In this document: piece by piece, positions 5,284 to 63,737 of the stretch
How positions within the stretch are numbered: the first letter of the stretch is position 1
Layout: every line of letters begins with the position of its first letter
NCBI GenBank assembly: GCA_963744145.1
Contig: CAVUSO010000001.1
Coordinates: forward strand, 1,742,831-1,806,830
Length of the DNA stretch: 64,000 bases
Reading direction: 5' to 3'
Source of the DNA: an uncultured cyanobacterium
GTDB taxonomy: Bacteria > Cyanobacteriota > Cyanobacteriia > Cyanobacteriales > CAWUOF01
Program-made: the position numbers and the translations under genes
Notes under the pieces: model-generated
Seen by the model: only the letters and a program-made list of their open reading frames with translations
Told to the model about the DNA's origin: nothing
Databases searched by the model: none

Positions 5284-5372
5284 TTCAATTCTTGCTCCCC
5301 CTTTATAAGGAAGTTGAGGGGATCAATTCTTGCTCCCCCTTTTTAAGGGGGTTGGGGGGATCGGATGCAGCT
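5284..5372. repeat. Short direct repeat (ttcaattcttgctcccccttt x2) with a CCCCCTTTTTAAGGGGG hairpin and a GGGGGGATC motif; the same motif family recurs at 42871-42965
   Basis: Read directly in the sequence; the hairpin is a perfect palindrome ccccc-ttttta-aggggg. Confidence 0.5.
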
Positions 5373-20159: not shown

Positions 20160-22166
20160 TTAATCATCATTTAAACCTGATAATCTCATAATTTCATCGA
20201 ACTGAAAATTGTTGACCAATTGTACCAGCATTCTCGCCAAAAGTCCATATTCACTCTCAATTTGTTTAATTATAGTCAAAGTTAAGTCCGAATCGGCTAA
20301 AGCAGCAGCTTCATATAATTCCGCTAACCAATGGTCGGGTAAAACGGCGAAATCAACTGGATCTAGTTTAGTTCTAATCTTGTGATCTAATTCAACTGAA
20401 TCATGTAATTTATCCTCTTCAGGGTAGATATACTCTACCCCAATATATTTATTCATAATATCAAAAATATCTGCTGCTTGAAAGGGTTTATGGATCATGT
20501 CATCACATCCTGCTGCTCTCACCAATGAATGCTCTTCTTCCATCACATTAGCAGTTAAGGCAATAATGGCTATACTTTTACCTTGTGGGGTCGCTTTAAT
20601 CTGTTTAGTTGCTTCGTAACCATTCATGACGGGCATTCGCATATCCATCCAGATTAAATTTGGCTCCCAAGTTGATGAAATTTGCACAGCTTCTTGACCG
20701 TTAGTTGCCTCTTTAATTTCAAACCCAAGCGGTTGTAGTAGTTTAATCAATAATTGGCGATTGTCCCATTTGTCATCAACAATTAGGATACGATAGGATG
20801 GTTGATTAGGTGCTAAAGCGATCGCGATCAGATGGTTTTTCTTCGGTATAGGCTCAATACTTTCCAGAATATTGCTACTAATATAAAACTGAAACTCTGT
20901 CCCTTGTCCTAATTCACTACTTACCGTGATTTCTCCTCCCATCATTTGGACAAACTGACGACTAATTGATAAGCCTAATCCCGTACCTTCTTGGGCTTTT
21001 TTACCAGTTTGGGTTTGGACAAAAGGCTCAAATAGCAGCTCTAATTCATCCCTAGCAATACCTGGACCAGTATCTTTAACTCCAAAGATAATTAGGTTCT
21101 GTAAATCTGTTAGTCGCTCATCTAAATTAGAGAATTTTGCCAAATTAGGCATGGTTTCATCATCAGTATTTATTTGATTTTGACTCAATAAACTTATTTG
21201 CACTGTTATGCAGCCTTGCTGGGTAAATTTAATGGCATTATTAACTAAATTAATCAATACTTGACGTAACTTAATTTCGTCCGTTCGCAAATATTTAGGT
21301 ACATCAGAATTACGATTGATTAAAAGCTTCAATCCCTTGTCTCTAGCTTTCAAATAAAACATATCTTCTAGATCATGCAGCAGACGATATAAATCAAAGT
21401 TCGTTTCGTTAAAAGTTATCCGTCCTGCTTCAATTTTAGATAAATCTAAAACGTTATCAATCAAAGCTAGTAGGTGTTCACCACTACGATGAATAATGCG
21501 AAGATTTTCTTGGTATTCTGGATGTAAATTTTGCTCACGAATCATTAATTGGGTAAATCCTAGAATCGCATTTAGTGGCGATCGCAATTCATGACTCATA
21601 TTTGCTAAGAAGGTGCTTTTAGCACGGTTAGCTACTTCTGCTAATTCCTTCGCTTGTTGCAATTCAATCGTGCGGGCTAAAATTTTTGACTCTAAGGATG
21701 CGTTTAATTGTTCTAATTCATTATTAATTTTTTGTAAAGTTTGATTTTGTTCAGCTAGTTGTTGATCTTGAGTATACCGACGGATTGCTTCTGTAACGGT
21801 TAATTCTAAATCGGTTTCATCCCAGGGTTTGGCAATATAACGATAAAGATTAGCAGAATTAACTGCATTTCCTACCGCAGTTGCATCTGCTTGTCCAGTT
21901 AACAGTATTTTTAAAGTTTTCGGATATTGCTGATGGAGTTTTATTAATAGTTCATCACCTTTCATTCCTGGCATAATTTGATCGGTGATCACTAGGGTAA
22001 CTTCCAGCTCTTCTTCTAATAATTCGGCAAAAATTTCTAAAGCTTCTTCACCACTTTGGGCTAATTCAATGTCATAATCATTACCAAAATTATGGATTAG
22101 CTGATCTCTCAGACTAATCAAAATCATCCTTTCATCATCTACACAAATAATTGTTCCTTTACTCAT
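20160..22166 (-). CDS. Hybrid histidine kinase (atypical N-terminal REC - HisKA - HATPase - REC - C-terminal helical domain)
   Basis: N-terminal [32 protein letters not shown]-box [15 protein letters not shown]-box [10 protein letters not shown]2 [12 protein letters not shown]. Second [32 protein letters not shown]. Confidence 0.85.
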
Positions 22167-22560
22167 AATTTCCTTCTAATCCTGATTCAAGCACTTCAAT
22201 TAAGGTTTTTTGATCCCAAGGTTTAGGTAAACATCGATGTAGGTTAGCATATTTTTGGGCTCTTTCAATTGCTTTTTCTGAAGCTTGTCCAGTCAAAAGC
22301 ACTGTGACAATTCCTGGAAATTGATGATGGACTTTAATTAAGAATTCATCTCCTTTCATATCGGGCATTAACCAATCTGAAATAATCAGCAGAATTTTGA
22401 TACCTTCACTCTGTAACTCTTCCATTACTTCTAGTGCTTCATCCGTATTTTCCGCAAATTCATAAATATAGCGATCGCCAAAATGTTGGGTGATTTGATC
22501 GCGTAAACTAATCAAAATCATCCTTTCATCATCTACACATAAAATTGCTTTTTTGGGCAT
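22159..22560 (-). CDS. Single-domain response regulator (REC), paralogous to the N-terminal REC of the downstream hybrid kinase
   Basis: [19 protein letters not shown]...[16 protein letters not shown] is highly similar to the N-terminus of ORF 20160..22166. The ORF track starts at 22629, but an ATG at about 22558-22560 is preceded by a perfect TAAGGAGG Shine-Dalgarno and avoids overlap with the upstream kinase, so I place the start there. An 8-nt overlap (ATGAGTAA) couples it to the next gene. Confidence 0.75.
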
Positions 22561-22579
22561 AAATAATCTGATTTCCTCC

Positions 22580-24964
22580 TTAACCTGCAATGGACAGCCA
22601 TACCCTAAAAGTAGTCCGTCCTGGTTCACTATCTACCTCAATTTTACCAGAATGTTTCTCAATTATCTTGCGGACAATATCTAGACCTAACCCTGTTCCT
22701 TCTCCAGCACTTTTGGTCGTAAAAAAAGGCTCAAATATTTTTGACTTAATTTCCATTGGAATCCCACAACCAGAATCTGTAATTTCTACTACAACATAAG
22801 GATCTTGCTGTTGGACCCTAATCCTTAAGTTACCTTGATAATTCATTGCTTGGATTGCATTATGAATTAAATTTGTCCAGACTTGGTTTAATTCTTCTGG
22901 ATAACCAAGGATTGGGACTACTTCTTGATAATCTTTAGTCACCTCAATCCCTTGCTTTAATTGATGATGATAGATAGTTAAAACTACTTCAATTCCTTCA
23001 ATTACTTGGGTTTTTATTTTTTGATCTGAGTGATCATAACGAGCATAACTTTTTAAAGCAAATACTATTTTGGCAGCTCGTTCGACAGCTAGAATAATAT
23101 TTTGGCTATTTCGTTGTTGCATTGCTAAGTTAGAAATAGCTTCAATAATAGCCAGATTTTGGTCAGCTTGTAAAAGTGAGATATAATCAGTAATATTTTG
23201 AGTAAATCCCATATTTACTAAAGCAGTTGCGATCGCTTCACCATTATGGATCTGGGCTGATTCTAAATTTTTGATTAGCGTGCGTTTTAATTGTCGTTCT
23301 TCTCGAAATGAAAGAGTTGCTTTATTAGCTTGTACTACTGCTAATAAAGTAAAGAAATCTTGTTGTTGTCCTAAAGATAGTTGGGGCAACAATTGGGGTA
23401 ATTGTTGGAGGGAATTACTCAGCGCACTAACAATATTGCCAATGGAAGCTCTGATTGCTCCCAAAGGTGTATTAATTTCGTGAGCAATCCCTGCAATTAG
23501 TTCTCCCAACGCTGCCATTTTTTCTGATTGAATCAGTTCTTCTTGAGTAACTTTTAATTCTAATAATGTTTGAGCTAATTCCTCATTTTTTTGCCTTAAT
23601 GCTTCTTCTGCTTGTTTCCTTTCTGTAATATCATTAGAGAGAGAGAGCAAACAATCTTCACCCCGAATATTAATAATTTCTGCTGATAATAAAGTTGTCC
23701 TAATTAAACCTGATTTAGTCTTAAATTTAAATTCATAGTTATTAGCTAACCGATTACTTTGCAACAGATTAAATAAATAAATCCGATCCTCTTGATTGAT
23801 CCAAAGGTTAAGGTCGTTAGCAGTATAACCAATAATTTCTTCCCGACTGTAACCCGTCTGACGACAAAAAGTTTCGTTGACTTCAATATGTGTTCCATCT
23901 GCTAATCTGGTAATTGTCATCGCATTAGGACTAGAACGAAAAGCTTTCTTAAATTTTTCCTCAGATAAACATAATGCTGCTTCTGCTTGTTTGCGATCGC
24001 TAAGATCACGAGCTACCCAAACGACGGAGTTATTTGTCATCGGGGAAATCCGGGTAGCAAACCAAATTTCTTGTTCACTACTTGATAAGCTATAATCAAA
24101 CTCGATCGTCTGCTGTTGTTCTAAAGCTTTGTGAATTTGTTCCCACCAAATATCGGTTGTTTGATCTTGAAAAAATTGTTCGATCGTCTGACCAATTATA
24201 TCAAAATTTTCATCATATAAAAGACCTGTATTAGTTGGAACAACTTGGATACTTCCTTGTCTACTAATCACTAGGATAATATCTGTCATTGCTTCCAAAA
24301 TTGCCCGCATTGTTGTTTCTGAAGTGTGCAGTTTTTCCTCTAATAACTGGAGATCACGAAGTTTCTGTTCTAGATCATGATTTTTCTCTTTTACTTGACT
24401 GTATTTTCTAGGTAACTCCGCTTCTAATTGCTGATAAATTTTGCTATTCTCTCCACCAATTTCTGTCTGACAATTTATCACCAAATTTTGATGATTGACA
24501 GAAATATCATTTTTAATTTTTGGCAAAAATTGCGGATAACGTAACTCTAATTCCTTCACATTTATCCAATCTTTCCCATTCACATATTCATCATAAGCCT
24601 GTTGTAAATAAATTTGAGCAAACTGCTCCATCCCTTGGGCTAGATAAAACTCAGCAGCTAGTTTATAGACCAGCGGAATATCTTGAATATATTGGTTTTT
24701 TCTGACATTTTTAATTGCTTGTTCATATAGCTCTACTGCTTCCCATTTGTTTTCTAAAACTCTGGCTATTTCTGCCCCAATTAATTGATATCTGTGTAGA
24801 TAATTAATGGGAGTATTAGCCGCCAAAATGCTGAGATTATCTTGGTAAATATAAATAGCTTCTAGATATTTTTTTTGCTCATTTTTATCTACCCTTGCAT
24901 AATTTGCTAATAAACTTAATGAGTAGTAAAAATCATCTTCATCATCTGGCAATAATTCATTCAT
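22580..24964 (-). CDS. Sensor histidine kinase with N-terminal TPR-like region and two PAS domains
   Basis: H-box AHEINTPLGAIRASIGN, N-box NLIHNAIQAM, G1 DSGCGIP, G2 GEGTGLGLDIVRK. The N-terminal 200 aa are helical and TPR-like. PAS segments sit near ITERKQAEEAL. Confidence 0.85.
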   Translation of the reverse strand: MNELLPDDEDDFYYSLSLLANYARVDKNEQKKYLEAIYIYQDNLSILAANTPINYLHRYQLIGAEIARVLENKWEAVELYEQAIKNVRKNQYIQDIPLVYKLAAEFYLAQGMEQFAQIYLQQAYDEYVNGKDWINVKELELRYPQFLPKIKNDISVNHQNLVINCQTEIGGENSKIYQQLEAELPRKYSQVKEKNHDLEQKLRDLQLLEEKLHTSETTMRAILEAMTDIILVISRQGSIQVVPTNTGLLYDENFDIIGQTIEQFFQDQTTDIWWEQIHKALEQQQTIEFDYSLSSSEQEIWFATRISPMTNNSVVWVARDLSDRKQAEAALCLSEEKFKKAFRSSPNAMTITRLADGTHIEVNETFCRQTGYSREEIIGYTANDLNLWINQEDRIYLFNLLQSNRLANNYEFKFKTKSGLIRTTLLSAEIINIRGEDCLLSLSNDITERKQAEEALRQKNEELAQTLLELKVTQEELIQSEKMAALGELIAGIAHEINTPLGAIRASIGNIVSALSNSLQQLPQLLPQLSLGQQQDFFTLLAVVQANKATLSFREERQLKRTLIKNLESAQIHNGEAIATALVNMGFTQNITDYISLLQADQNLAIIEAISNLAMQQRNSQNIILAVERAAKIVFALKSYARYDHSDQKIKTQVIEGIEVVLTIYHHQLKQGIEVTKDYQEVVPILGYPEELNQVWTNLIHNAIQAMNYQGNLRIRVQQQDPYVVVEITDSGCGIPMEIKSKIFEPFFTTKSAGEGTGLGLDIVRKIIEKHSGKIEVDSEPGRTTFRVWLSIAG

Positions 24965-27662: not shown

Positions 27663-27982
27663 CGGTTCAGTTAACTGTAGGGGCAAAGCATTTCGGCGCA
27701 TAAATGATAGCTTAAACGTTTACCCTGAGTTTACCCTGAGCGGAGTCGAAGGGCGTAGTCGAAGGGAAGGATAATATTACCGAAATGCTTTGCCCTCACC
27801 ATCTATGCAGCCAACCGATCAACTAGATATTAAAATCCATTCAGTTAAGATTTTTTGGGAGCTCTCGGCGCAGATTGGGCGAAGCATTCGGATATAATAT
27901 TAACTGTTTTAGTGTTAAATTGTCGCCCGAATGCTATGCCTACGGCACGCTTGCGCGAACGCCCCTACGGTTAACTGAACCG
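27663..27982. mobile_element. MITE-like non-coding element, ~320 bp, with 22-bp terminal inverted repeats (cggttcagttaactgtaggggc / gcccctacggttaactgaaccg) and nested internal inverted repeats
   Basis: Terminal inverted repeats have 1 mismatch. Internal inverted repeat gggcaaagcatttcg / cgaaatgctttgccc. Tandem gtcgaaggg x2. No ORF. A related partial copy sits at 45460-45592. Confidence 0.5.
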
Positions 27983-28041: not shown

Positions 28042-28860
28042 ATGAAAAAAAGACATATTCTTGCATTTATTAGTGGTATAATCGCGGTCCTAACTTTGGC
28101 AGCTTGTACTCACTTTGTGACCAAACCTACCTCTGTAGTACCAGCAAATGCTAGCTTGTTAGTGTCAGCTGCAGCTAGTCTCCAAGAAGCACTGCAAGAA
28201 ATTCAACCAATTTTTCAAAAAAGTCAGGCTCAGACTAGTGTCAATTATAATTTTGGTGCTTCTGGAGCTTTACAACAACAAATTGAACAAGGTTCACCAG
28301 TAGATGTCTTTATTTCTGCTGCTACTAAGCAAATGAATGCTTTGCAGAAAAAGGATTTGATTCTCACCGATACTCTACATCAGCTTCTTACTAATAGTCT
28401 GGTTTTGATAGTGTCCAATCATTCTAATTTACAGATTAAGGATTTTACCCAATTAGCTGACTCTAATGTGGAAAAAATTGCTGTCGGTGAATTTAAAAGT
28501 GTTCCGGTTGGGCAATATACTGAGGAAATGTTCAAAAATTTGAAAATTTTTGATCAAGTTAAACCAAAATTGGTATTTGGTAATAGTGTTCGTAATGTTT
28601 TAGCTGCGGTTGAAAGTGGTGATGTTGATGCTGGAATTGTCTATAAGACTGATGCAAAAATATCAAATCAGGTAAAAGTTATTGCCACAGTACCAAAAAA
28701 CTTGCATTCTCCAATTATTTATCCGATCGCTGTTTTGAAAAATAGTAGAAATCCTGAAACTGCTAAAGATTATGTCAAATTTTTAGTCAGCGATGCTGCT
28801 GCAACTACTGTGTTTCAGAAATATGGCTTTGGGATTGCTTCCCAACCAAGCAAAAGTTAG
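28042..28860 (+). CDS. modA: Molybdate ABC transporter substrate-binding protein (ModA-like)
   Basis: Lipoprotein-like leader (LAAC). Conserved AAASL..AL.E...F....YNFGASGAL..QI..G.P.DVFISA and DAGIVYKTDA motifs typical of ModA. Confidence 0.75.
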   Translation: MKKRHILAFISGIIAVLTLAACTHFVTKPTSVVPANASLLVSAAASLQEALQEIQPIFQKSQAQTSVNYNFGASGALQQQIEQGSPVDVFISAATKQMNALQKKDLILTDTLHQLLTNSLVLIVSNHSNLQIKDFTQLADSNVEKIAVGEFKSVPVGQYTEEMFKNLKIFDQVKPKLVFGNSVRNVLAAVESGDVDAGIVYKTDAKISNQVKVIATVPKNLHSPIIYPIAVLKNSRNPETAKDYVKFLVSDAAATTVFQKYGFGIASQPSKS

Positions 28861-29682
28861 TTAATTCGGACAACGTCGCTTCATGACTATGGCGATCGCG
28901 GTTAAAAATATTAATCCCATTGCTCCGGCTAAAGGATTATGATTAACCCCAGTAACCCAATCCGATACTTGACCAGAATAGACAGTCATTTTTCCGACAT
29001 TAATTATATAATAACCCCAAACTAAACCAGCATGAAAACCGATTGATAAACCCAAACGTCCGGAATTACTGCGTTTAGCCCAAACGAGAATTAATCCCAG
29101 TAACAATAACCCTGGAAATTGCGGAAAAGTCCGGATCACCTCACTCAGAGGTTTGATAAAATGCAGGGAAGCAAAGATAATTGCATCCAACCAAAGTGCT
29201 GCTTGACGAGAATAATCTCGTTGTAATTCATCTAATAACCAACCACGAAATACGACTTCTTCCGCTAATCCAATTCCTACTGCACTTAGTAATCCTTCTG
29301 TGATGAGTTGGGGTAAAGGTAGAGCAGGATTTTGCCAGATTAACCAACCTAGCAATCCTTGTAACCCAAATAAACTAAAGGTAGTTAATAAACCAAAACC
29401 TAATCCTGATAGCCATTCTAAGATATTTTGGCGCTTGCGTTCTAAACCATAACGGCTAAAAATTTGGGGTTGATGATAGACTTTTTCTCCCCAAATTCGC
29501 AGGAGCAGAAAAAATTCTGTGAATAACAACCCCATCGTGATAATTGTCACTAAATTGCGATCGCTTCCTAACCAATAAATGGGAGTGGCAATGGGTAGCC
29601 ACACTAATAGGAGAATTAACAGAAATATCCCTATTCGTCCCGGAGCTGGATAACGGCTGATCTGGCCCAGATTGAATTTCAA
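28861..29682 (-). CDS. CPBP-family (CAAX) intramembrane metalloprotease
   Basis: Multi-TM protein with the EEVVFRGWL (ExxxR) and FASLHF (FxxxH) motifs of Abi/CPBP proteases. Confidence 0.75.
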   Translation of the reverse strand: MKFNLGQISRYPAPGRIGIFLLILLLVWLPIATPIYWLGSDRNLVTIITMGLLFTEFFLLLRIWGEKVYHQPQIFSRYGLERKRQNILEWLSGLGFGLLTTFSLFGLQGLLGWLIWQNPALPLPQLITEGLLSAVGIGLAEEVVFRGWLLDELQRDYSRQAALWLDAIIFASLHFIKPLSEVIRTFPQFPGLLLLGLILVWAKRSNSGRLGLSIGFHAGLVWGYYIINVGKMTVYSGQVSDWVTGVNHNPLAGAMGLIFLTAIAIVMKRRCPN

Positions 29683-29695
29683 CGGTAATTTTTAT

Positions 29696-29977
29696 CTATT
29701 CATCAGGTTCAATCGTACTGGTGAGACCATGACTTTTCAAGGTTTCACAGTAAAATTCTGCGTGTTCCTGAGCGCAAGTAATCACCAAAGCAATCCCATT
29801 AGTATGTGCTTCCATCATAATACTCACCGCCTGCGGTTGGGTCAGACTGGGCACGGTCATTAGTAAAGTCTTGACGACATACTCCATTGAATTGAAGTCA
29901 TCGTTATGTAGTAACACCCGATAGCGAGGCGCAATTTTGCGAACCGTTGAACGTTTTTCAATGGTTTCGACAGACAC
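29696..29977 (-). CDS. clpS: ATP-dependent Clp protease adaptor ClpS
   Basis: RYRVLLHNDDFNSMEYVVKTLLMTVPSLTQPQAVSIMMEAHTNGIALVITCAQEHAEFYCETL matches the ClpS core. Confidence 0.85.
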   Translation of the reverse strand: MSVETIEKRSTVRKIAPRYRVLLHNDDFNSMEYVVKTLLMTVPSLTQPQAVSIMMEAHTNGIALVITCAQEHAEFYCETLKSHGLTSTIEPDE

Positions 29978-30198
29978 GGCTCTATGATCTCCTTAAAGTG
30001 GTCTTGAATTGCGGCATTTTTTAACTGCTGAAAATATTTGTTAGATCACCGATCGGACCAGTAGCGATCGCCAGATGTTAACAAATTTAGCTCTAAAGGT
30101 CGATCGTCGCTGATAATTCAGTGGTTTGGGTAGAACAAGCAGCGAGCGCGGCTCTAGCGCACCAATCAAATCACCAGCTAATTATATTTCTACATCAA

Positions 30199-31050
30199 TC
30201 AGATGACCGATAAAATTATTCCTTCGCGGGCTAGGACTGCATTTGGGCAAACTTTTTCTACTTCCAGGGTCAGACGATCAAGAAAGTCATCGCTATGATT
30301 AGGTTCATGATGAAACACTACTAATCTTTTGACCCCAGCAGCTTGAGCTATTTTTACTCCTTCTTGCCAAGTTGAGTGTCCCCAGCCCACTTTGGGAGAT
30401 TTCGGATTGTGGTATTCCTCATCTGTATACATAGCATCGTAAATCATCATATCGGCGTTACTGGCTAGATGAAGGACATTTTCATCCATGCGATCGGGGA
30501 AATGTTCTGTATCCGTGCAATAAAAGACCGAATGTCCTTGCCAAGTTACTCGGTATCCCATGGCACTATTCGGGTGATTTAACGGACCAGTTTCGATGGT
30601 AATGTCTTCTAGCTCAAAAGTATCGCCACAGATTAAGTCATAAAACTTCAAATCAGCTTTCATCCCGCCTAATGGGACTGGCGAATTAGGATGTAACACT
30701 CTTTCAATGAAATGATGTTTCATCGACTGAGCATCTCCAGGTACTGCTCCATGAATATGGAAACAATTACCTTGAATAAAAGCAGGGGTAAAAAAAGGAA
30801 ACCCTTGGATATGATCCCAATGGTAATGGGTAAAAAACATATAGGCTTCTAGGGGCATTTGCGATACTAGGTTTTTACCTAATACCTGCAAACCGGTACC
30901 ACCGTCAAAAATGAGACGTTTACCGTTAATCCGCATTTCTATACAAGATGTATTACCGCCGTAGCGAACTGTGTCTTTTCCTGGGGTGGGTACGCTACCT
31001 CGTACACCCCAAAATTGGATCACAAACTCAGAGGAAGGGCTGGTTTCCAT
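30199..31050 (-). CDS. MBL-fold metallo-hydrolase
   Basis: HYHWDHIQGFPFF (HxHxDH) motif. The ORF track extends to 31167, but that overlaps the aroC 3' end, so the start is more likely the internal METSPS... Met. Confidence 0.7.
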   Translation of the reverse strand: METSPSSEFVIQFWGVRGSVPTPGKDTVRYGGNTSCIEMRINGKRLIFDGGTGLQVLGKNLVSQMPLEAYMFFTHYHWDHIQGFPFFTPAFIQGNCFHIHGAVPGDAQSMKHHFIERVLHPNSPVPLGGMKADLKFYDLICGDTFELEDITIETGPLNHPNSAMGYRVTWQGHSVFYCTDTEHFPDRMDENVLHLASNADMMIYDAMYTDEEYHNPKSPKVGWGHSTWQEGVKIAQAAGVKRLVVFHHEPNHSDDFLDRLTLEVEKVCPNAVLAREGIILSVI

Positions 31051-31085
31051 AGGAGATTTCAGGTCTGTCGAATAGACAAGAGTGA

Positions 31086-32208
31086 CTATGTGTTTGCTGC
31101 GGCTAGGCCGCCTGAAGGAATCATCAAAGTGCCACATTGACCCTGATGGCGCAAAAGATGATCGCATAATACTAATGCAACCATTGCTTCTACCATAGGC
31201 ACTGCTCTAGGCAAAACGCAAGGGTCATGTCGTCCTTTTGCAGCTAAAATCGTTTCTTCTCCCTGATTAGTCACGGTGCGCTGCTCTTGACGAATTGTAG
31301 CAGTTGGTTTAAACGCCACACGTAAAATAATATTTTCACTATTGGAAATGCCACCCTGAATTCCGCCAGAACGATTGGTGCGTGTTCGCACTTCTCTATT
31401 ATCTACATAGAATTCATCATTGTGTTCACTTCCTGTCATCAGGGTACCAGCAAAACCTGACCCAATTTCAAATCCTTTACTTGCTGGTAATGACATGACA
31501 CCTTTGGCGAGATCTGCTTCCAATTTATCAAAAACTGGATCACCTAATCCTGATGGGACATTTCTAACTACACACTCTACTACACCTCCAATGGAATCTC
31601 CTTGTTTTCGCACTTGTTCAATTAGTTTGATCATCCGTTCGGCACAATCGGCATCAGGACAACGTGCAATGTTGCTTTCTACTTCCTCGATGGTAACTTG
31701 GTCAGGATCGATTACTGCTTCTAGATCTTTAATGCGTTTAACATAACCGACTATTTCTACATCAGCAACTTGTTTTAAGATTTTTTTGGCGATCGCTCCT
31801 GCTGCGACTCTACCGATGGTTTCTCGCGCTGAAGATTTACCTCCACCTTGCCAGTTGCGAATGCCATATTTAGCATCATAGGTCGCATCTGCATGGGAAG
31901 GTCGATATTTGACAGCCATTTCATCATAATCCTGGGGACGAGTGTCTTGATTGCGGACTAACATCGCGATCGGTGTCCCCAATGTTTTTCCTTCAAATAC
32001 TCCTGAAACAATTTCGCATAGATCTGCTTCTTGACGTGGTGTGGTAATTTTGCTCTGTCCTGGACGTTCTCCGATCTAGTTCTTGTTGGATTTCTAATAC
32101 GGAAATTTCTAGTCTTGGTGGACAACCATCGATCACTACGCCCACTCCACCTCCGTGGGACTCTCCAAATGTGGTTATGCGAAATAAATGTCCGAAGGTA
32201 TTACCCAT
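31086..32208 (-). pseudogene. aroC: Chorismate synthase aroC interrupted by an apparent +1 frameshift (two ORFs: 31993..32208 N-terminal part, 31086..31982 remainder)
   Basis: The N-terminal ORF reads [47 protein letters not shown], then runs out of frame. Shifting one base at about 32066-32072 (an agaa run) restores ...[35 protein letters not shown], which joins the second ORF ([19 protein letters not shown]...). The remainder is a full-length AroC. Confidence 0.7.
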
Positions 32209-32413
32209 GATCTCGCTTGCTGCTGCTCTCAGAAATTTATATTTTAACAGTCTTTGCTTGCGAATAGTTAATTGATCAACTGGATTTTGCTGCTCTGATT
32301 CCCTATTCTGTAGAGAAATTTTTCAATTGAAACAGTTAGAACTTGGCCATGATAGAGTTAGGGTAAGATTTGGTGAGGACTAAATAGTAAATTAATGGGG
32401 TAATCAAAAAATT

Positions 32414-33526
32414 ATGAGTAATGACTATTTTACAGAAACAACAGTTACGGGATGGGGAGAACGTCTTGGCCAATCTTGCTTTGGCATGATTCTAGGGCTT
32501 TTATTATTTTTTGCTTCATTTTTTGTATTGTTTTGGAATGAAGGACGGACTGATTTTTCTGCCGTTGCTCAAAACGCGATCGAAATCTCTATAAATACGA
32601 CTGATAGTAAATCTGTTGGTAAATTTGTATCTGTCAGTGGTTCATTAACAACAAATCAAACATTAGGAGATGGAATATGGTTAAAACCAGGTAATTATAT
32701 TGCTGCTCAAAGACAGGTAGAAATGTATGCTTGGAAACAAGATGAACGGACAGAAACTCACAAAAATGTTGGTGGTTCTGAAACTAAAACAACCACCTAT
32801 ATATATAACAAAGAGTGGCAAATAAACCCGCCTCAATCATCATCTTTTCGTTATGCTCAAGGACATGAAAATCCACCGATGCTAGTAAATGGTGAGGTTT
32901 TTCGTGTGACTGAAGCTAAAATCGGTATTTATGATATTAATCCAGCTAATGTAGAGTTACCAGAACTAAATCATCTGCGTTTAAATACTAATAATATCAA
33001 TCAAACCCAAGGTTTTTTCTTAGCAAATAACTATTTATTTAAAGGAACAGGTTCATTGAAGAATCCTGCCTTAGGAGATCTGAGGCTATCTTATTCTATA
33101 TTAGAAAATCAGGCTAACGTAACTCTATTTGGAAAACTCGATAATTCTAACCATATTGAACCATATTTGATCGGAAATGAAACCTTCTACCGATTATTTC
33201 GGGGCGATCGAGCTAGTGCGATCGCCAAGATGAAACAGGAATATAAACTCTGGACTTGGATTTTCCGAGGGGTTGGCTTTTTGATGATGTGGATCGGTTT
33301 ATCTCTAGAGTTTGGTCTAGTTACAACTTTTCTAGATGTATTACCCTTTCTGGGTAATATTGCTGAAGGAATTACTGGCACTGGCAGTTTTTTGGTAGCA
33401 TTGGTTCTTTCCACCGTTACAATTTTAGTATCCTCTCTCCTGCATAATATTGTAGCTCTGCTAATAGCTATTGCGATCGGAATAACTGTCATTCTATTTT
33501 TCCGCAATCTCAGACGATCTAACTAG
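32414..33526 (+). CDS. TMEM43/DUF1625-like membrane protein (N-terminal TM, large extracytoplasmic domain, C-terminal TM bundle)
   Basis: Topology and overall organisation read from the translation; the family assignment is tentative. Confidence 0.4.
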   Translation: MSNDYFTETTVTGWGERLGQSCFGMILGLLLFFASFFVLFWNEGRTDFSAVAQNAIEISINTTDSKSVGKFVSVSGSLTTNQTLGDGIWLKPGNYIAAQRQVEMYAWKQDERTETHKNVGGSETKTTTYIYNKEWQINPPQSSSFRYAQGHENPPMLVNGEVFRVTEAKIGIYDINPANVELPELNHLRLNTNNINQTQGFFLANNYLFKGTGSLKNPALGDLRLSYSILENQANVTLFGKLDNSNHIEPYLIGNETFYRLFRGDRASAIAKMKQEYKLWTWIFRGVGFLMMWIGLSLEFGLVTTFLDVLPFLGNIAEGITGTGSFLVALVLSTVTILVSSLLHNIVALLIAIAIGITVILFFRNLRRSN

Positions 33527-33631
33527 TCTAGAAACCGGGTTTGATCCATAAATTCAGTAACCAACCAAAATTTTTCTGAACAACCCGGTTTTTTTATAGT
33601 TTTTTTTGGAACAATAATCCCTTAATTAATT

Positions 33632-34192
33632 TTACCTAATTGCGGACAGAAGTGGAATATAACCTAATTTTTCCAGAGCTATAATTACCTTAGCAACGCT
33701 TTCATCAATACTTTCCTCGACTGTAGAGCAAATCACTTCTGGGTGCAACGGTTCTTCGTAGGGATCATCAATCCCAGTAAAATGCTTAATTTCTCCCGAT
33801 CGCGCTTTAGCATACAACCCTTTCACATCCCTAGCTTCGCAAACATGGAGAGGTGCTTTTACATACACTTCCACAAAATTAGTAGTCATCGTTCGCACTT
33901 CATCTCGGAGGGCTCGATAAGGACTAATCGCTGCGATGATGGCAATTACTCCATTTCGACTCAGCAAATTTGCTACAAAGCCGATCCGACGAATATTTGT
34001 GTCCCGATCTTCCTTACTAAACCCTAATCCTTTACTCAGATGAGTACGGACAATATCCCCATCTAATAACTCAACTCGACAATTACGCAGTTTCAGTTCA
34101 CTCTCAACTCTTTGGGAAATAGTAGTTTTACCTGCACCACTCAGCCCCGTAAACCACAAAGTCACACCTTGATTTTGCATATTCCTTGACAA
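33632..34192 (-). CDS. cysC: Adenylylsulfate (APS) kinase
   Basis: [19 protein letters not shown] (P-loop) ...[32 protein letters not shown].. is the APS kinase signature. Confidence 0.9.
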
Positions 34193-36477
34193 TCATTTGC
34201 AATTAACGACGACAGCCAGAAGTTTCCTAATATCCCGCGATCGCCCTGTTCTTCACCTTGGATATTAGCATTACTACTATTTCCATTTGAGGTGGTTTCA
34301 CCATAATACGAGTAATAGGAATAATAGATATCCCCGCGATCTGTATCAACCATGTTTACTACTAACCCAGCTATATGGCTTTTACTGACTTTCAGAAGTT
34401 CCGTCGCTCGTAAGATCGCTGCACGAGTTGCTCCTTCCATCGCTGCGACAAAAACAACGCTATCGACTTTTGCTGCTAAACTTTGGGCATCTGCTACCCC
34501 AACGATCGGTGTGCTATCTAACAAGACATAATCATAAGTTTGACGCCATTCCTTTAATAGTGCTGCCATTTTTTCCGATTCTAACAATGCTACTGGATTG
34601 GGAGGATTTGGCCCAGAAGTCAGAACGGTTATTTTTCCTCCAGAAAAAGAATGAGTTAGCTGATCCCAAGATTTGTCAGTTGCGATCGCGGTACTCAATC
34701 CCACCGCATTCGGGATCTGCCATAATTTATGAACTTTTGGTTTACGCATATCTGCATCAACAATCAACACTCGTTGACCTAACTCTGCTAAAGATAAGCC
34801 TAAATTATAAACTAAGGTACTCTTACCTTCCCCAGGAGTTGATGAAGTAAAAGCTAAGGTCTTGACTTGACCACTAGCACCGAGAAAACGTAAATTTAGT
34901 GCTAAAGAACGAAATGCTTCTGTAAATGGTGAGCGATCGTAACCTCGAGATTTGCCATTTAGTGCTTCAACTTGGGGAGTAATATCAGGGTTTTCCACTC
35001 GAGGAACTACTCCAAGTAAAGGTATTCCCGTCAATTCCTTAATCTCTTCAACTCGTTTCACTCTTTGATCTAAGCGTTCGAGTAACACCGCAAATCCGAT
35101 CCCTAATACACCACCTGCTAACATCCCCAGGAGTAAATTGCGCTGAATATTTGGTGATATGGGAGCATCTGGTAAATGGGGAGGTTCTAAAATGCGCCAA
35201 GGAGCAGTTTCTTGAGCTTCAGAAATCCGCAGTTCTTGTAATTTTTCTAAAAAGCGGTTAACTGCATCAGACCTAATCTTAACTTGACGTTGTAATTCTG
35301 CATAAGCTTGTTGCAGTTGGGGAATTTGTTGAAAACTACCCGCTACTTGTGTTTGGGCTTGCAAAATGCTATTAAATTGACTCATTTGCGATGCTAAATC
35401 TGTCTCTACTTGGAGCAATTGACTAGCCAGACCCTGTTGAATTTCTCCTGAGCCGGTCACATCACTGATATCAACTTGGGAAACGGCATTTCCCATGACT
35501 TGCACTGACCGTTCTTGTAGCAATCTCAGCGTTTGATCTCGCTGTTGTTTCAGGTTTTCCACAATCGGATGATTGTCATAATAACGAGTGCGTTCCACCG
35601 TATATTTAGCTTCTATTTCCTTTAAATTACTGGCGATTTTTTGATAGACAGCATCTTGGGCTAAAAGAGACTTAGCCAACGCGGTATCAGGATTTTGACC
35701 AACTTTCTCCATTTGTCGTCGCAGTTCTTGATATCGGCGCTGATTTTGGTTAATTGAAATTGCTAATGCTTGAGCTTGTTCTTGAAATGATTCTTTATTT
35801 TTGACAACTATATCTGCATAAGAATCAGGATCAACAATGCTATAACGTTGCCGAAATGCCCGAATTGCTAAAGCTGATTCATTTAAGTCTTGTTGGGCTT
35901 GGGGTAATTGTTGGTTAATAAATTCGATCGCGTTTGTTGCTTGACCTCGTTTTTTCTCTAAGCTATAATTGACATAAGTAGCTCCTAATGCTTCTAGCAC
36001 TGCTTTAGCTCGATCGGGAATTGTATCTGTATAGGATACAATTAATATTTCTGCCTGTCCAACTTGACGAATAGAAAGATTTTTGCTAATATAAGAAATG
36101 GGAATATTTTTATAGCTATCGTCTAATTTATTAATGGCTTTAGCAATTAAAGATTGGCTTTGCAAGATTTGAATTTCGGTTGATAAATCCTTCGTATTAA
36201 GATTATTTGTATTAGCGTCCGTCGGTGAGTTAACAATTGGTACAGCCGTTTTTTGATCGAGTAAAATTAAAGTCTCTGACTGATATTTGGGGATAGTAGA
36301 AAAAGTAGAAAGAGCTACACCCACAAACACAGACACAGCAACAGCGATCGCCTGGGGCCATCTTTTGCGGAGGGATCTGCCTAAGTCAGCTCCTCCCAAC
36401 CCAGAACTACTAGTTTCACTCTGAATGAAATCGTCTTTGAGCTGTTTTAATTCAGTTGCTACTTGCAGTTCAGACAC
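34162..36477 (-). CDS. Exopolysaccharide chain-length determinant / tyrosine autokinase (Wzc/GumC-like polysaccharide co-polymerase)
   Basis: N-terminal TM + Wzz-like coiled-coil periplasmic domain + second TM. C-terminal P-loop kinase domain [37 protein letters not shown]. Tyr-rich tail [12 protein letters not shown]. Confidence 0.8.
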
Positions 36478-36982
36478 TTTACCCTCATAATTGTTATAGG
36501 TTAATTAGTCCGATTTCTCTCCATCGACTAAAAGAGAAAGAGACTATTCACTATAACTAACTAAATTTTCCATTATCCGGAAAATGTTATTCTTTTGGCT
36601 TACCATACCATTACAACGTCGCAAATACGTTAAATTTTCCAGCTTTACGCTCGTTTGTTTGGCGTCCTTGTGCCAGTTTGTAGTGATTAATTAAATTTTG
36701 TTGGTGTTGCGTTCACGTAGTGTATCGTAGGTAATCGCGGTAGCTTACCGTAGGTGTCCAGTGTCCTGCTTTTGGTCGCGATCGCTCTCAACTAATTACT
36801 CTCCCTAGTTCTACCAATTCTGACAATTATGACTACAGATGATCTGTAGTGCCAATTTATGAAACTGGTATTACTTGCTACTTGGCGGCTGATATCAGCT
36901 TCGCTATTTCCAAATGAACAGAAGACCTAGGAATTTATTCATTTTTCTTTTCCTTAGTATATTTCAACGCTTTATGGAGAAT

Positions 36983-45459: not shown

Positions 45460-45592
45460 GGTTCAGTTAAGAATGTTTTTGGGAGTTATCGGTGAAGCTG
45501 GGCGTTCGCGAGAGCGTGCCGTAGGCATAGCATTCGGATATAATGTTACTGGCGCTTATCGCTCAATTGTCGCCCGAATGCTTCGCCCCTAC
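45460..45592. mobile_element. Partial (internally deleted) copy of the MITE-like element seen at 27663-27982
   Basis: Starts ggttcagttaag and ends cgcccctactag; the internal block gccgtaggcatagcattcggatataat...ttgtcgcccgaatgcttcgccc matches the reverse complement of 27880-27960. Confidence 0.45.
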
Positions 45593-49244: not shown

Positions 49245-49875
49245 ATTTTCGGTTTGATATCAGGTTTTTTAGTAGCATATATAACTATATCTAAGTAATT
49301 CGCTAGCATCGGTATAATTTGTCAGCGATCGCCGATTTTTTTTGTAAAGATTTATTGATAATTCCGGAAATTTACAGAATCATCAGTTAAATTTCTTTAA
49401 CAAAATTAAGCGGTTAAACTGTTGGTTGAGAAAACCTAAAAGTCTAGTCAGCACAAGCTTAACGGGTGAAAATCTCAATCCAAATGCACCAAAAACAGAA
49501 AATAAAACAGTGATAGGAGGTAAAGGGGATTGACATCTGCAAGATATATTGCTAAGATAATTAACATAAAATTTAACCAAGTCAGTTGAATCCTGATGTT
49601 ACTAATGCAGTCACAGACATTAAAAGGAAACTGAAGAGAAAACCTTGTTCTGAATCTAGATGGTTCCCATCTCCTCAGCATCAGTAGTTGGTAGTAATTT
49701 AGCCTACCTCGCTAGTAGTAGTCTTGTGTTGTTAATTGTCTAGGTTGTTCGTTTAAACCAAGATGAAGGAGAAATCAGCGATCGGCTCATCAATGGGAAG
49801 AGGAATTTACTTGTGTGGAACGATTATTCCTTGACCATGAAATCGGTAAAAATTTTATTCAAGAGAGGTTAAGCT

Positions 49876-51572: not shown

Positions 51573-52022
51573 ATGCAGCTAAACAAGATTAATTTAGCGA
51601 ATATCGTCGCCATCGGTCATCAAAATGGTCAATTAGGGGTAGTGATTGACCGAGGTGAAGATTTAGAATATATTGAGATTCCAGCTCCGATCGCGGCTTA
51701 TCAAGGGTTAGAGCAACTTGATTTGATCGTTAATAGTGATTTTTCCCAACTGTCCGCATCAGAAATTACCCTGACTCCGGAATTAGATTGTCCAGAAGCG
51801 ATCGCCATGTTACCAGTCAAATCATCAGCGACGGCAGCGATTGGTTATGATGAAACTGAACAAGTTTTGCAAATTAAATTTGCTCAGGGAGCCACCTATC
51901 AATATTATGATGTCCAAGTGGAAGTTTGGGAAGATTTTGTTGAGGCTGACTCAAAAGGGCAATTTTTTCATGCTCAGATTAAAGGTTATTATGAATCAGC
52001 GCGGATTGACCAGGAAGATTAA
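51573..52022 (+). CDS. KTSC-domain protein
   Basis: C-terminal IGYDETEQVLQIKFAQGATYQYYDVQVEVWEDFVEADSKGQFFHAQIKGYY matches the KTSC (lysyl-tRNA synthetase C-terminal-like) domain. Confidence 0.5.
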   Translation: MQLNKINLANIVAIGHQNGQLGVVIDRGEDLEYIEIPAPIAAYQGLEQLDLIVNSDFSQLSASEITLTPELDCPEAIAMLPVKSSATAAIGYDETEQVLQIKFAQGATYQYYDVQVEVWEDFVEADSKGQFFHAQIKGYYESARIDQED

Positions 52023-62397: not shown

Positions 62398-62988
62398 CTA
62401 GGTTTGGTTTTCTGGCTCTATACTGTCAAATGAGACATCTTCATACAAATTATCAATGCTAGTACGAAAGTCTATACTTGCCAAATGAATTTCACTACCT
62501 GGAAAATAGAATTGCAACACCCATAATCCTTCGGGATTACGACGAAAGCAGTCTAATCGCGGCTGCTTTTGACTAATTAAAACATATTCTTGCAAGGTTT
62601 CCAATTTTTGATAGTCTACAAATTTATCACCTCGGTCAAAAGCTTCTGTTGATTCAGATAAAACTTCGACAATTAAACAAGGATATTTTTTATAATTTAC
62701 AAATTCTCGATCTCTCGGATCACAAGTTACCATCACATCAGGATAGTAAAAAATATTAGCGGTATCTATCCGGGCTTTCATATCCGCTATATAGACACGA
62801 CAACCAGTACCTCGCAGATGATTTCTTAATATTGAAGCCAAGTTAAGGGAAATAGTGATATGGGCATCACTAGCACCAGCCATTGCATAAACTTGCCCAT
62901 CAATATATTCGTGTTTGATCGAGCTGAGTTCTTCGATCGCTAGATAATCTTTAGCAGAAATAAAATCTTGACTTTGATTGGCAATCAT
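62398..62988 (-). CDS. Uma2-family (DUF820) putative endonuclease, copy 1 of a tandem pair
   Basis: YLAIEELSSIKHEYIDGQVYAMAGASDAH...IVEVLSESTEAFDRGDKFVDYQKLETLQEYVLISQ has the Uma2 pattern. Confidence 0.8.
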   Translation of the reverse strand: MIANQSQDFISAKDYLAIEELSSIKHEYIDGQVYAMAGASDAHITISLNLASILRNHLRGTGCRVYIADMKARIDTANIFYYPDVMVTCDPRDREFVNYKKYPCLIVEVLSESTEAFDRGDKFVDYQKLETLQEYVLISQKQPRLDCFRRNPEGLWVLQFYFPGSEIHLASIDFRTSIDNLYEDVSFDSIEPENQT

Positions 62989-63138: not shown

Positions 63139-63737
63139 GCGATCGCTAGGTTTGGTTTTCTGGCTCTATCCTTTCAAATGAGACATCTTCATACAAATTA
63201 TCAATGCTAGTACGAAAGTCTATACTTGCCAAATGAATTTCACTACCTGGAAAATAGAATTGCAACACCCATAATCCTTCGGGATTACGGTCGAAAGCAG
63301 TCTAATCGCGGCTGCTTTTGACTAATTAAAACATATTCTTGCAAGGTTTCCAATTTTTGATAGTCTACAAATTTATCACCTCGGTCAAAAGCTTCTGTTG
63401 ATTCAGATAAAACTTCGACAATTAAACAAGGATATTTTTTATAATTTACAAATTCTCGATCTCTCGGATCACAAGTTACCATCACATCAGGATAGTAAAA
63501 AATATTAGCTGGATCTATCCGGGCTTTCATATCCGCTATATAGACACGACAACCATTACCTCGCACATGATTTCTTAACAGTGTAAATAAGTTTCCGGTG
63601 ATGGTGACATGGGCATCACTAGCACCAGCCATTGCATAAACTTGTCCATCAATATATTCGTGTTTAATCGAGCTGAGTTCTTCGATCGCTAGATAATCTT
63701 TAGCAGAAATAAAATCTTGACTTTGATTGGCAATCAT
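63139..63737 (-). pseudogene. Uma2-family gene, tandem copy 2, disrupted by a 1-nt insertion (ORF track shows only the first 150 aa, 63285..63737)
   Basis: Near-identical to copy 1 at the DNA level. At about 63283-63286 it reads attacggtcgaaagc where copy 1 (62541-62554) has attacgacgaaagc, which shifts the frame. Confidence 0.6.

Follow-up and report, generated by a model that had tools for sequence, protein, structure and literature searches.

Chorismate synthase, the product of aroC, is needed for the formation of Phe, Tyr and Trp, of folate and of quinones. In the 64-kb stretch of cyanobacterial DNA analysed here (the window), the coding sequence of this enzyme is interrupted by a single surplus base, which raises the question of whether the interruption belongs to the DNA of the organism or to the deposited record of it. 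A break of this kind may reflect an error of sequencing or assembly, the decay of a redundant copy, a recoding event during translation or a recent mutation in the sequenced culture. Taken together, the evidence makes it highly probable that the frame break in aroC is a consensus or base-calling error of the deposited assembly.

The Reading Frame of aroC

The minus strand of the window codes for chorismate synthase between positions 31086 and 32208, with the ATG at 32208. Frame 0 from this ATG specifies 47 AroC residues followed by 24 unrelated ones and ends at the stop codon 31995..31993 (71-aa ORF), and the +1 frame encodes AroC without interruption down to the stop codon at 31088..31086 (298-aa ORF). 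The break itself reads CGG AGA A CGT at 32073..32064. Codons 1–47, from the ATG through the AGA codon of Arg47, occupy 32068..32208 on the minus strand in frame 0; the surplus base follows at 32067 as an A of the coding strand, i.e., one of the two plus-strand Ts at 32067/32068; and codons 48–373 with the stop codon lie on the minus strand at 31086..32066, in the +1 frame relative to the ATG. On the plus strand, the window accordingly carries GACGTTCTCC with two Ts at 32063..32072, the single-T version being GACGTCTCC. The frameshift had been described in the original prediction, whose coordinates and peptide strings for both sides of the break proved correct on re-translation.

Deletion of the surplus base yields a protein of 373 aa that matches chorismate synthase from end to end. 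The repaired protein scores 488.8 bits against NF003793 (cut-off 321), covering profile positions 1–344 of 344, and 473.1 bits against TIGR00033 (cut-off 212.2), with the model length fully covered, and it matches the solved chorismate synthases 7rca and 1r52 with E values of about 1e-130. From the deposited sequence, gene callers give just a 292-aa C-terminal AroC product (P0003). Exact look-ups of the 71-aa and 298-aa ORF products returned no record, nor did those of an 887-aa and a 596-aa ORF of the window as delimited here, for which the called starts probably differ. When overlapping same-strand ORFs of the window were inspected for split genes, a histidine kinase (22580..24964) and a response regulator (22159..22629) were both found to be domain-complete and thus gave no indication of a further split gene.

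The Second Assembly

The divergently transcribed neighbour of aroC, a protein of 370 aa, is encoded with identical sequence by an 8,947-bp contig (L081) of the Logan assembly of run ERR11571142. This contig spans positions 28412..36868 of the window at 99.93 % identity and contains a called, uninterrupted chorismate synthase gene of 373 aa. A single continuous aroC frame, absent from the deposited window, is thus present in the second assembly (L081 2674..3795, 373 aa), and the 47 residues that precede the break in the window equal residues 1–47 of the intact L081 protein. L081 departs from the window at four positions (32067, 31837, 30054 and 34214), only two of which lie within aroC: the base at 32067 is missing, and position 31837 is C instead of T.

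Five further contigs of ERR11571142 were retrieved via other window proteins, so that six contigs in total could be compared with 34,987 nt of the window. The comparison revealed 7 differences in all, and no ordinary SNP away from GATC or indel sites anywhere in the 34,987 nt. So few differences, without a single ordinary SNP, indicate that both assemblies stem from a single strain, not from a pair of diverged relatives; the run presumably belongs to the same strain or project as the deposited genome. A text search of the literature for ERR11571142 found no mention of the run, and neither aroC allele had a match in JGI metagenomes scanned by exact pattern.

Among the explanations offered in the original prediction, the one that invoked a sequencing or assembly error is supported by this independent read-derived assembly of the same strain, which lacks the extra base. 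The prediction had named reads with a different homopolymer length that restores the frame as the mark of an assembly error; the Logan assembly, which consists of contigs and not of reads, essentially supplies this evidence, since its allele restores the frame.

Conservation of AroC and the Possibility of Recoding

An orthologue set of 80 cyanobacterial aroC loci was assembled by scanning one-genome-per-species contigs with the repaired protein; the closest orthologues found, at 86–87 % identity, belong to Fischerella, Microseira, Potamolinea and a Phormidium strain. In all 80 loci aroC is a single unbroken ORF of 361–371 aa. The motif RRRPGQS, which removal of the one base restores in the window, occurs verbatim in 76 of the 80, although its three arginines are written in at least 20 different triplet combinations across the set.

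Two further positions of the protein merit attention. Codon 124 (31836..31838, minus strand), on which the original prediction is silent, is AAA (Lys) in the window and AGA (Arg) in the second assembly, the plus strand reading GAAGATTTA and GAAGATCTA, respectively. Arg124, within GGGRSSARET, is invariant among the orthologues (80/80), and lysine is found at this position in the window only. Codon 290 (31338..31340, minus strand) is AGT (Ser) in both assemblies, in place of the glycine of ISNGEN that is shared by 80 of 80 orthologues and is also found at this position in yeast-type solved structures. Since both assemblies agree, G290S is, as judged from the sequences, probably a real substitution, and at an otherwise invariant glycine it leaves a little room for relaxed constraint.

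Once the two lesions confined to the window are set aside, AroC shows 2 departures at near-invariant columns (A181 and S290), which is within the range of 0–6 observed among the orthologues and therefore gives no sign of decay. A decaying pseudogene was considered as a candidate and rejected on this count and on the size of the source contig. The conservation of an unbroken ORF and of Arg124 in the 80 orthologues points to the intact version as the true allele of aroC.

The gene also contains an A7 homopolymer (31781..31787, minus strand; codons AIAKK, then I), which is intact in the window. In the AroC fragments P0002, P0004 and P0007, which derive from assemblies of other organisms and fall in the same 90 % cluster, the frame is lost directly after AIAKK, at this A7 run; homopolymer frameshifts in public assemblies seem to strike aroC of this clade repeatedly.

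The same orthologues bear on the proposal that the shifted gene is recoded, full-length AroC being made by programmed +1 frameshifting on the ribosome. One +1 shift would indeed restore the protein, and the site includes a GGAG, although these letters belong simply to the arginine codons CGG AGA. However, the gene is in frame in 80/80 orthologues, and the variety of codons used for the RRR triplet, at least 20 combinations, leaves no conserved nucleotide signal; moreover, in the near-identical second assembly there is no shift that would need decoding. The local sequence is equally unfavourable: at CGG AGA ACG, the AGA codon cannot re-pair in the +1 frame (GAA), the next stop codon of frame 0 lies 24 codons downstream, and AGA is common here, accounting for 18 % of Arg codons. 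The rare recoding event suggested in the original prediction is therefore hard to sustain, given unbroken orthologues, variable codons at the site and the lack of a shift-prone codon, an adjacent stop or a rare codon, and we regard it as exceedingly improbable.

Genomic Context and the Question of a Second Copy

The proteins of the window derive from a source contig of 7,634,710 bp, recorded by NCBI and ENA; at 7.63 Mb, the replicon that carries aroC is the chromosome, not a plasmid or chromid. On one side, aroC is neighboured by genes for an MBL-fold hydrolase, ClpS, a CPBP protease and ModA and, on the other side, by those for a TMEM43-like membrane protein, APS kinase and a Wzc-like tyrosine kinase. 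No second aroC was found within the 64-kb window.

This setting speaks to the suggestion that the gene is a redundant decaying copy, backed up by a second, intact gene located at another place in the genome or on a replicon. The contig is of chromosome size, housekeeping genes (ClpS, APS kinase, ModA) surround the locus, the window holds no other copy, the repaired protein shows 87 % identity to its orthologues with normal conservation, and the locus is intact in the second assembly. In addition, the 90 % cluster of the intact protein comprises only the two versions from this strain and fragments from other organisms. Nothing speaks directly for such a copy; the plasmid or chromid context that the original prediction had envisaged for it gives way to a chromosome-sized contig, housekeeping neighbours and a normally conserved product, and a redundant copy is accordingly considered very unlikely.

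The window also contains several repeats. A 38-nt element (GCATTCGGATATAAT...TTGTCGCCCGAATGC) has copies in inverted orientation at 27927..27964 and 45500..45537, where Logan contigs end, and a tandem pair with units of about 38 nt (AATTCTTGCTCCCCCTTT.TAAGG...GGGGATC) occupies 5287..5362; both are small dispersed or tandem repeats. Furthermore, two paralogues of the Uma2 family (PF05685) lie on the minus strand at 62398..62988 and 63285..63737, with DNA that is 96 % identical. The second carries a 1-nt insertion at about 63290 (CTTTCGACCG vs CTTTCG-TCG), by which its product is 150 aa compared with 196 aa, and identity stays at 100 % past the shift. The shifted paralogue, to which none of the Logan contigs extends, is either a real pseudogene or a further assembly error.

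Differences between the Assemblies and the GATC Motif

The window has a GC content of 38.5 % and is rich in GATC, with 421 occurrences in 64 kb against about 224 expected. CGATCG occurs 120 times and the HIP1 sequence GCGATCGC 67 times in the 64-kb window, and CGATCGG is found 29 times against an expectation of 3.2; the source genome is strongly of the HIP1 type known from cyanobacteria.

The seven differences between the assemblies are distributed with respect to this motif in a conspicuous manner. The extra base of aroC at 32067 is 6 nt away from a GATC (32073..32076). At 31837, in codon 124 of aroC, the window has T (GATTTA, 31834..31839) where L081 has the C of a GATC (GATCTA). At 51663, in a synonymous Leu codon of a gene with a KTSC domain, the window reads GATT and the contig GATC, and at 49783 the direction is reversed, with CGATCGG in the window and CGATTGG in the Logan contig. 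The intergenic C at 30054, part of CCGATCGG, which forms a perfect 8-bp palindrome in the window, is missing from the contig (CGAT-GG), and a homopolymer at 5354, G6 vs G5, abuts a GATC. The remaining difference is at 34214, 25 nt from any GATC, where the window has ACGACA--GCC and the second assembly ACGACGCCGCC, i.e., a GCC of the contig corresponds to A and a 2-nt gap in the window.

Hence, four of the seven differences strike the C of a GATC, where 2.6 % would be expected to fall (binomial P = 1.4e-5), and six are no more than 6 nt away from such a motif (P = 6.5e-6), both statistics being based on n = 7 differences only. All three substitutions are exchanges between GATC and GATT, each of which corresponds on the opposite strand to a G-to-A change directly 5' of the GATC adenine. 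At both 31837 and 51663, the window has GAAGATTTA and the contigs have GAAGATCTA; the latter is absent from the entire window, so that both sites of this 9-mer have been converted. Of the three T alleles, two are in the window and one is in the Logan contig; this distribution across both assemblies resembles ambiguous calls that were settled in different ways rather than a lineage-specific history of mutation. Errors of the GATC type in both assemblies would be expected of ambiguous reads resolved by two programs, unlike real mutations. A test of contig ends for ambiguous GATC sites found that Logan contigs end mostly at short dispersed repeats. The palindrome GACGTC, considered as a possible methylation site that the extra T of aroC breaks, has only two sites in the window, one of which falls in the compared region, where the assemblies agree.

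The difference at 34214 affects the 3' end of the Wzc-like gene on the minus strand (34162..36477), where the last codons are shifted. In the window, the Wzc-like protein is 771 aa long and runs 13 codons further, overlapping the APS kinase gene, whereas in the contig it has 758 aa, ends in ...GNFWRRRR* and stays clear of that gene. The contig version is probably the correct one here, and the window would then carry a second false frameshift.

It is against this pattern that the most serious alternative has to be weighed, namely that the only aroC of the sequenced culture has recently been inactivated by real mutations, the frameshift and R124K, whether owing to a mutant subline, to a heterogeneous culture or to aromatic compounds supplied by co-cultured bacteria. 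The lesion does stand in the deposited sequence, two damaging changes fall inside one gene of 1.1 kb, and G290S at an invariant glycine is common to both assemblies; if ERR11571142 were derived from a sister culture, the aroC lesion could be a real recent mutation. However, the location of two of the four L081 differences in aroC is not unusual, being expected by chance in about 9 % of cases (our binomial estimate for 8.5 kb), and differences linked to GATC, with T alleles in both assemblies, would not result from real divergence. Moreover, no ordinary SNP accompanies them in 35 kb, the rest of AroC is conserved like its orthologues, and the loss of chorismate synthase should not be tolerated by a phototroph that grows on mineral medium. 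Real mutation is thus improbable as the origin of the two lesions. Equally, it appears decidedly improbable that the two-T allele and R124K are both real and that chorismate synthase is therefore missing from the cyanobacterium or from a dominant subpopulation of the culture. Were this loss true, survival would have to depend on aromatic cross-feeding or on an unrecognised replacement enzyme, and the GATC-linked differences would have to reflect a mutational process targeted by methylation instead of base-calling error.

Proposed Origin of the Surplus Base

An error in the deposited consensus, the reading preferred here, may be explained as follows. The window would carry the sole chromosomal aroC of a HIP1-rich cyanobacterium, the true gene corresponding to the uninterrupted 373-aa ORF of the second assembly with Arg124 intact, and the extra base at 32067 would be foreign to the DNA of the organism and one of a small class of errors tied to the GATC motif. 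HIP1-bearing cyanobacteria typically possess orphan GATC and CGATCG methyltransferases, which in Synechocystis make G-m6A-TC and m5C-GATCG. GATC is presumably methylated in this strain as well, and a nanopore platform is assumed as the source of the data. Methylation is known to lead nanopore callers to read C as T, which on the complementary strand means A for G, and to blur the calls nearby; the GATC at 32073..32076 presumably carries such methylation and would in this way have disturbed the call of the surplus base at a distance of 6 nt.

In bacterial assemblies from nanopore R10.4.1 data, residual substitutions are mostly C-to-T or G-to-A at methylation motifs, and these motif errors vanish after whole-genome amplification (Liu et al. 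2024, PMC11610603). Lohde et al. 2024 (PMC11610573) likewise describe ambiguity between purine and purine and between pyrimidine and pyrimidine, with RA/TY as the minimal context. The concentration at a motif and the dominance of C/T exchange that are expected of methylation-linked consensus error are both observed among the seven differences. The link to methylation is weaker for the insertion than for the substitutions, since it lies 6 nt outside the GATC and not in a long homopolymer.

Consequences for the Deposited Record

If the four to five window-side errors per 35 kb hold genome-wide, roughly a thousand errors would be present in the 7.63-Mb assembly. Many of them would fall at GATC and create false pseudogenes, as in aroC and the Wzc-like gene, or false missense changes of catalytic residues, as in R124K of AroC, and a metabolic reconstruction from the deposited record would wrongly score the last step of the shikimate pathway as absent. 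While a real lesion would have meant a notable aroC-less phototroph, the finding at this locus matters only as quality control, i.e., as a warning of motif-linked errors in the deposited assembly.

Comparison with Known Systems

Like known chorismate synthases (NF003793/TIGR00033, Pfam PF01264), the repaired protein contains RRRPGQS, together with GGGRSSARET in the second assembly. The window departs from this family in an ORF split by one base and in the lysine at the position of Arg124, and the second assembly shows neither departure. A frameshift pseudogene resembles the locus in the disrupted reading frame of the deposited sequence; however, nothing else in aroC points to decay, and a near-identical assembly has the gene intact.

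Programmed frameshifting in prfB (release factor 2) offers the closest likeness for recoding, in that a single +1 shift restores a conserved essential protein. Unlike prfB, the aroC site contains no in-frame stop, no hungry codon, no shift-prone P-site codon and no spaced upstream Shine-Dalgarno stimulator, and the shift is conserved in none of the 80 orthologues.

The published methylation errors provide the nearest match to the differences between the two assemblies, as they share with them substitutions that are exclusively C/T, a short recurring motif, otherwise identical sequence and assemblies that resolve the same site differently. The published RA/TY context is also fitted here by the opposite-strand G that lies 5' of the GATC adenine. 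In contrast to the published C-to-T errors, the aroC frameshift is an insertion, situated 6 nt from the motif.
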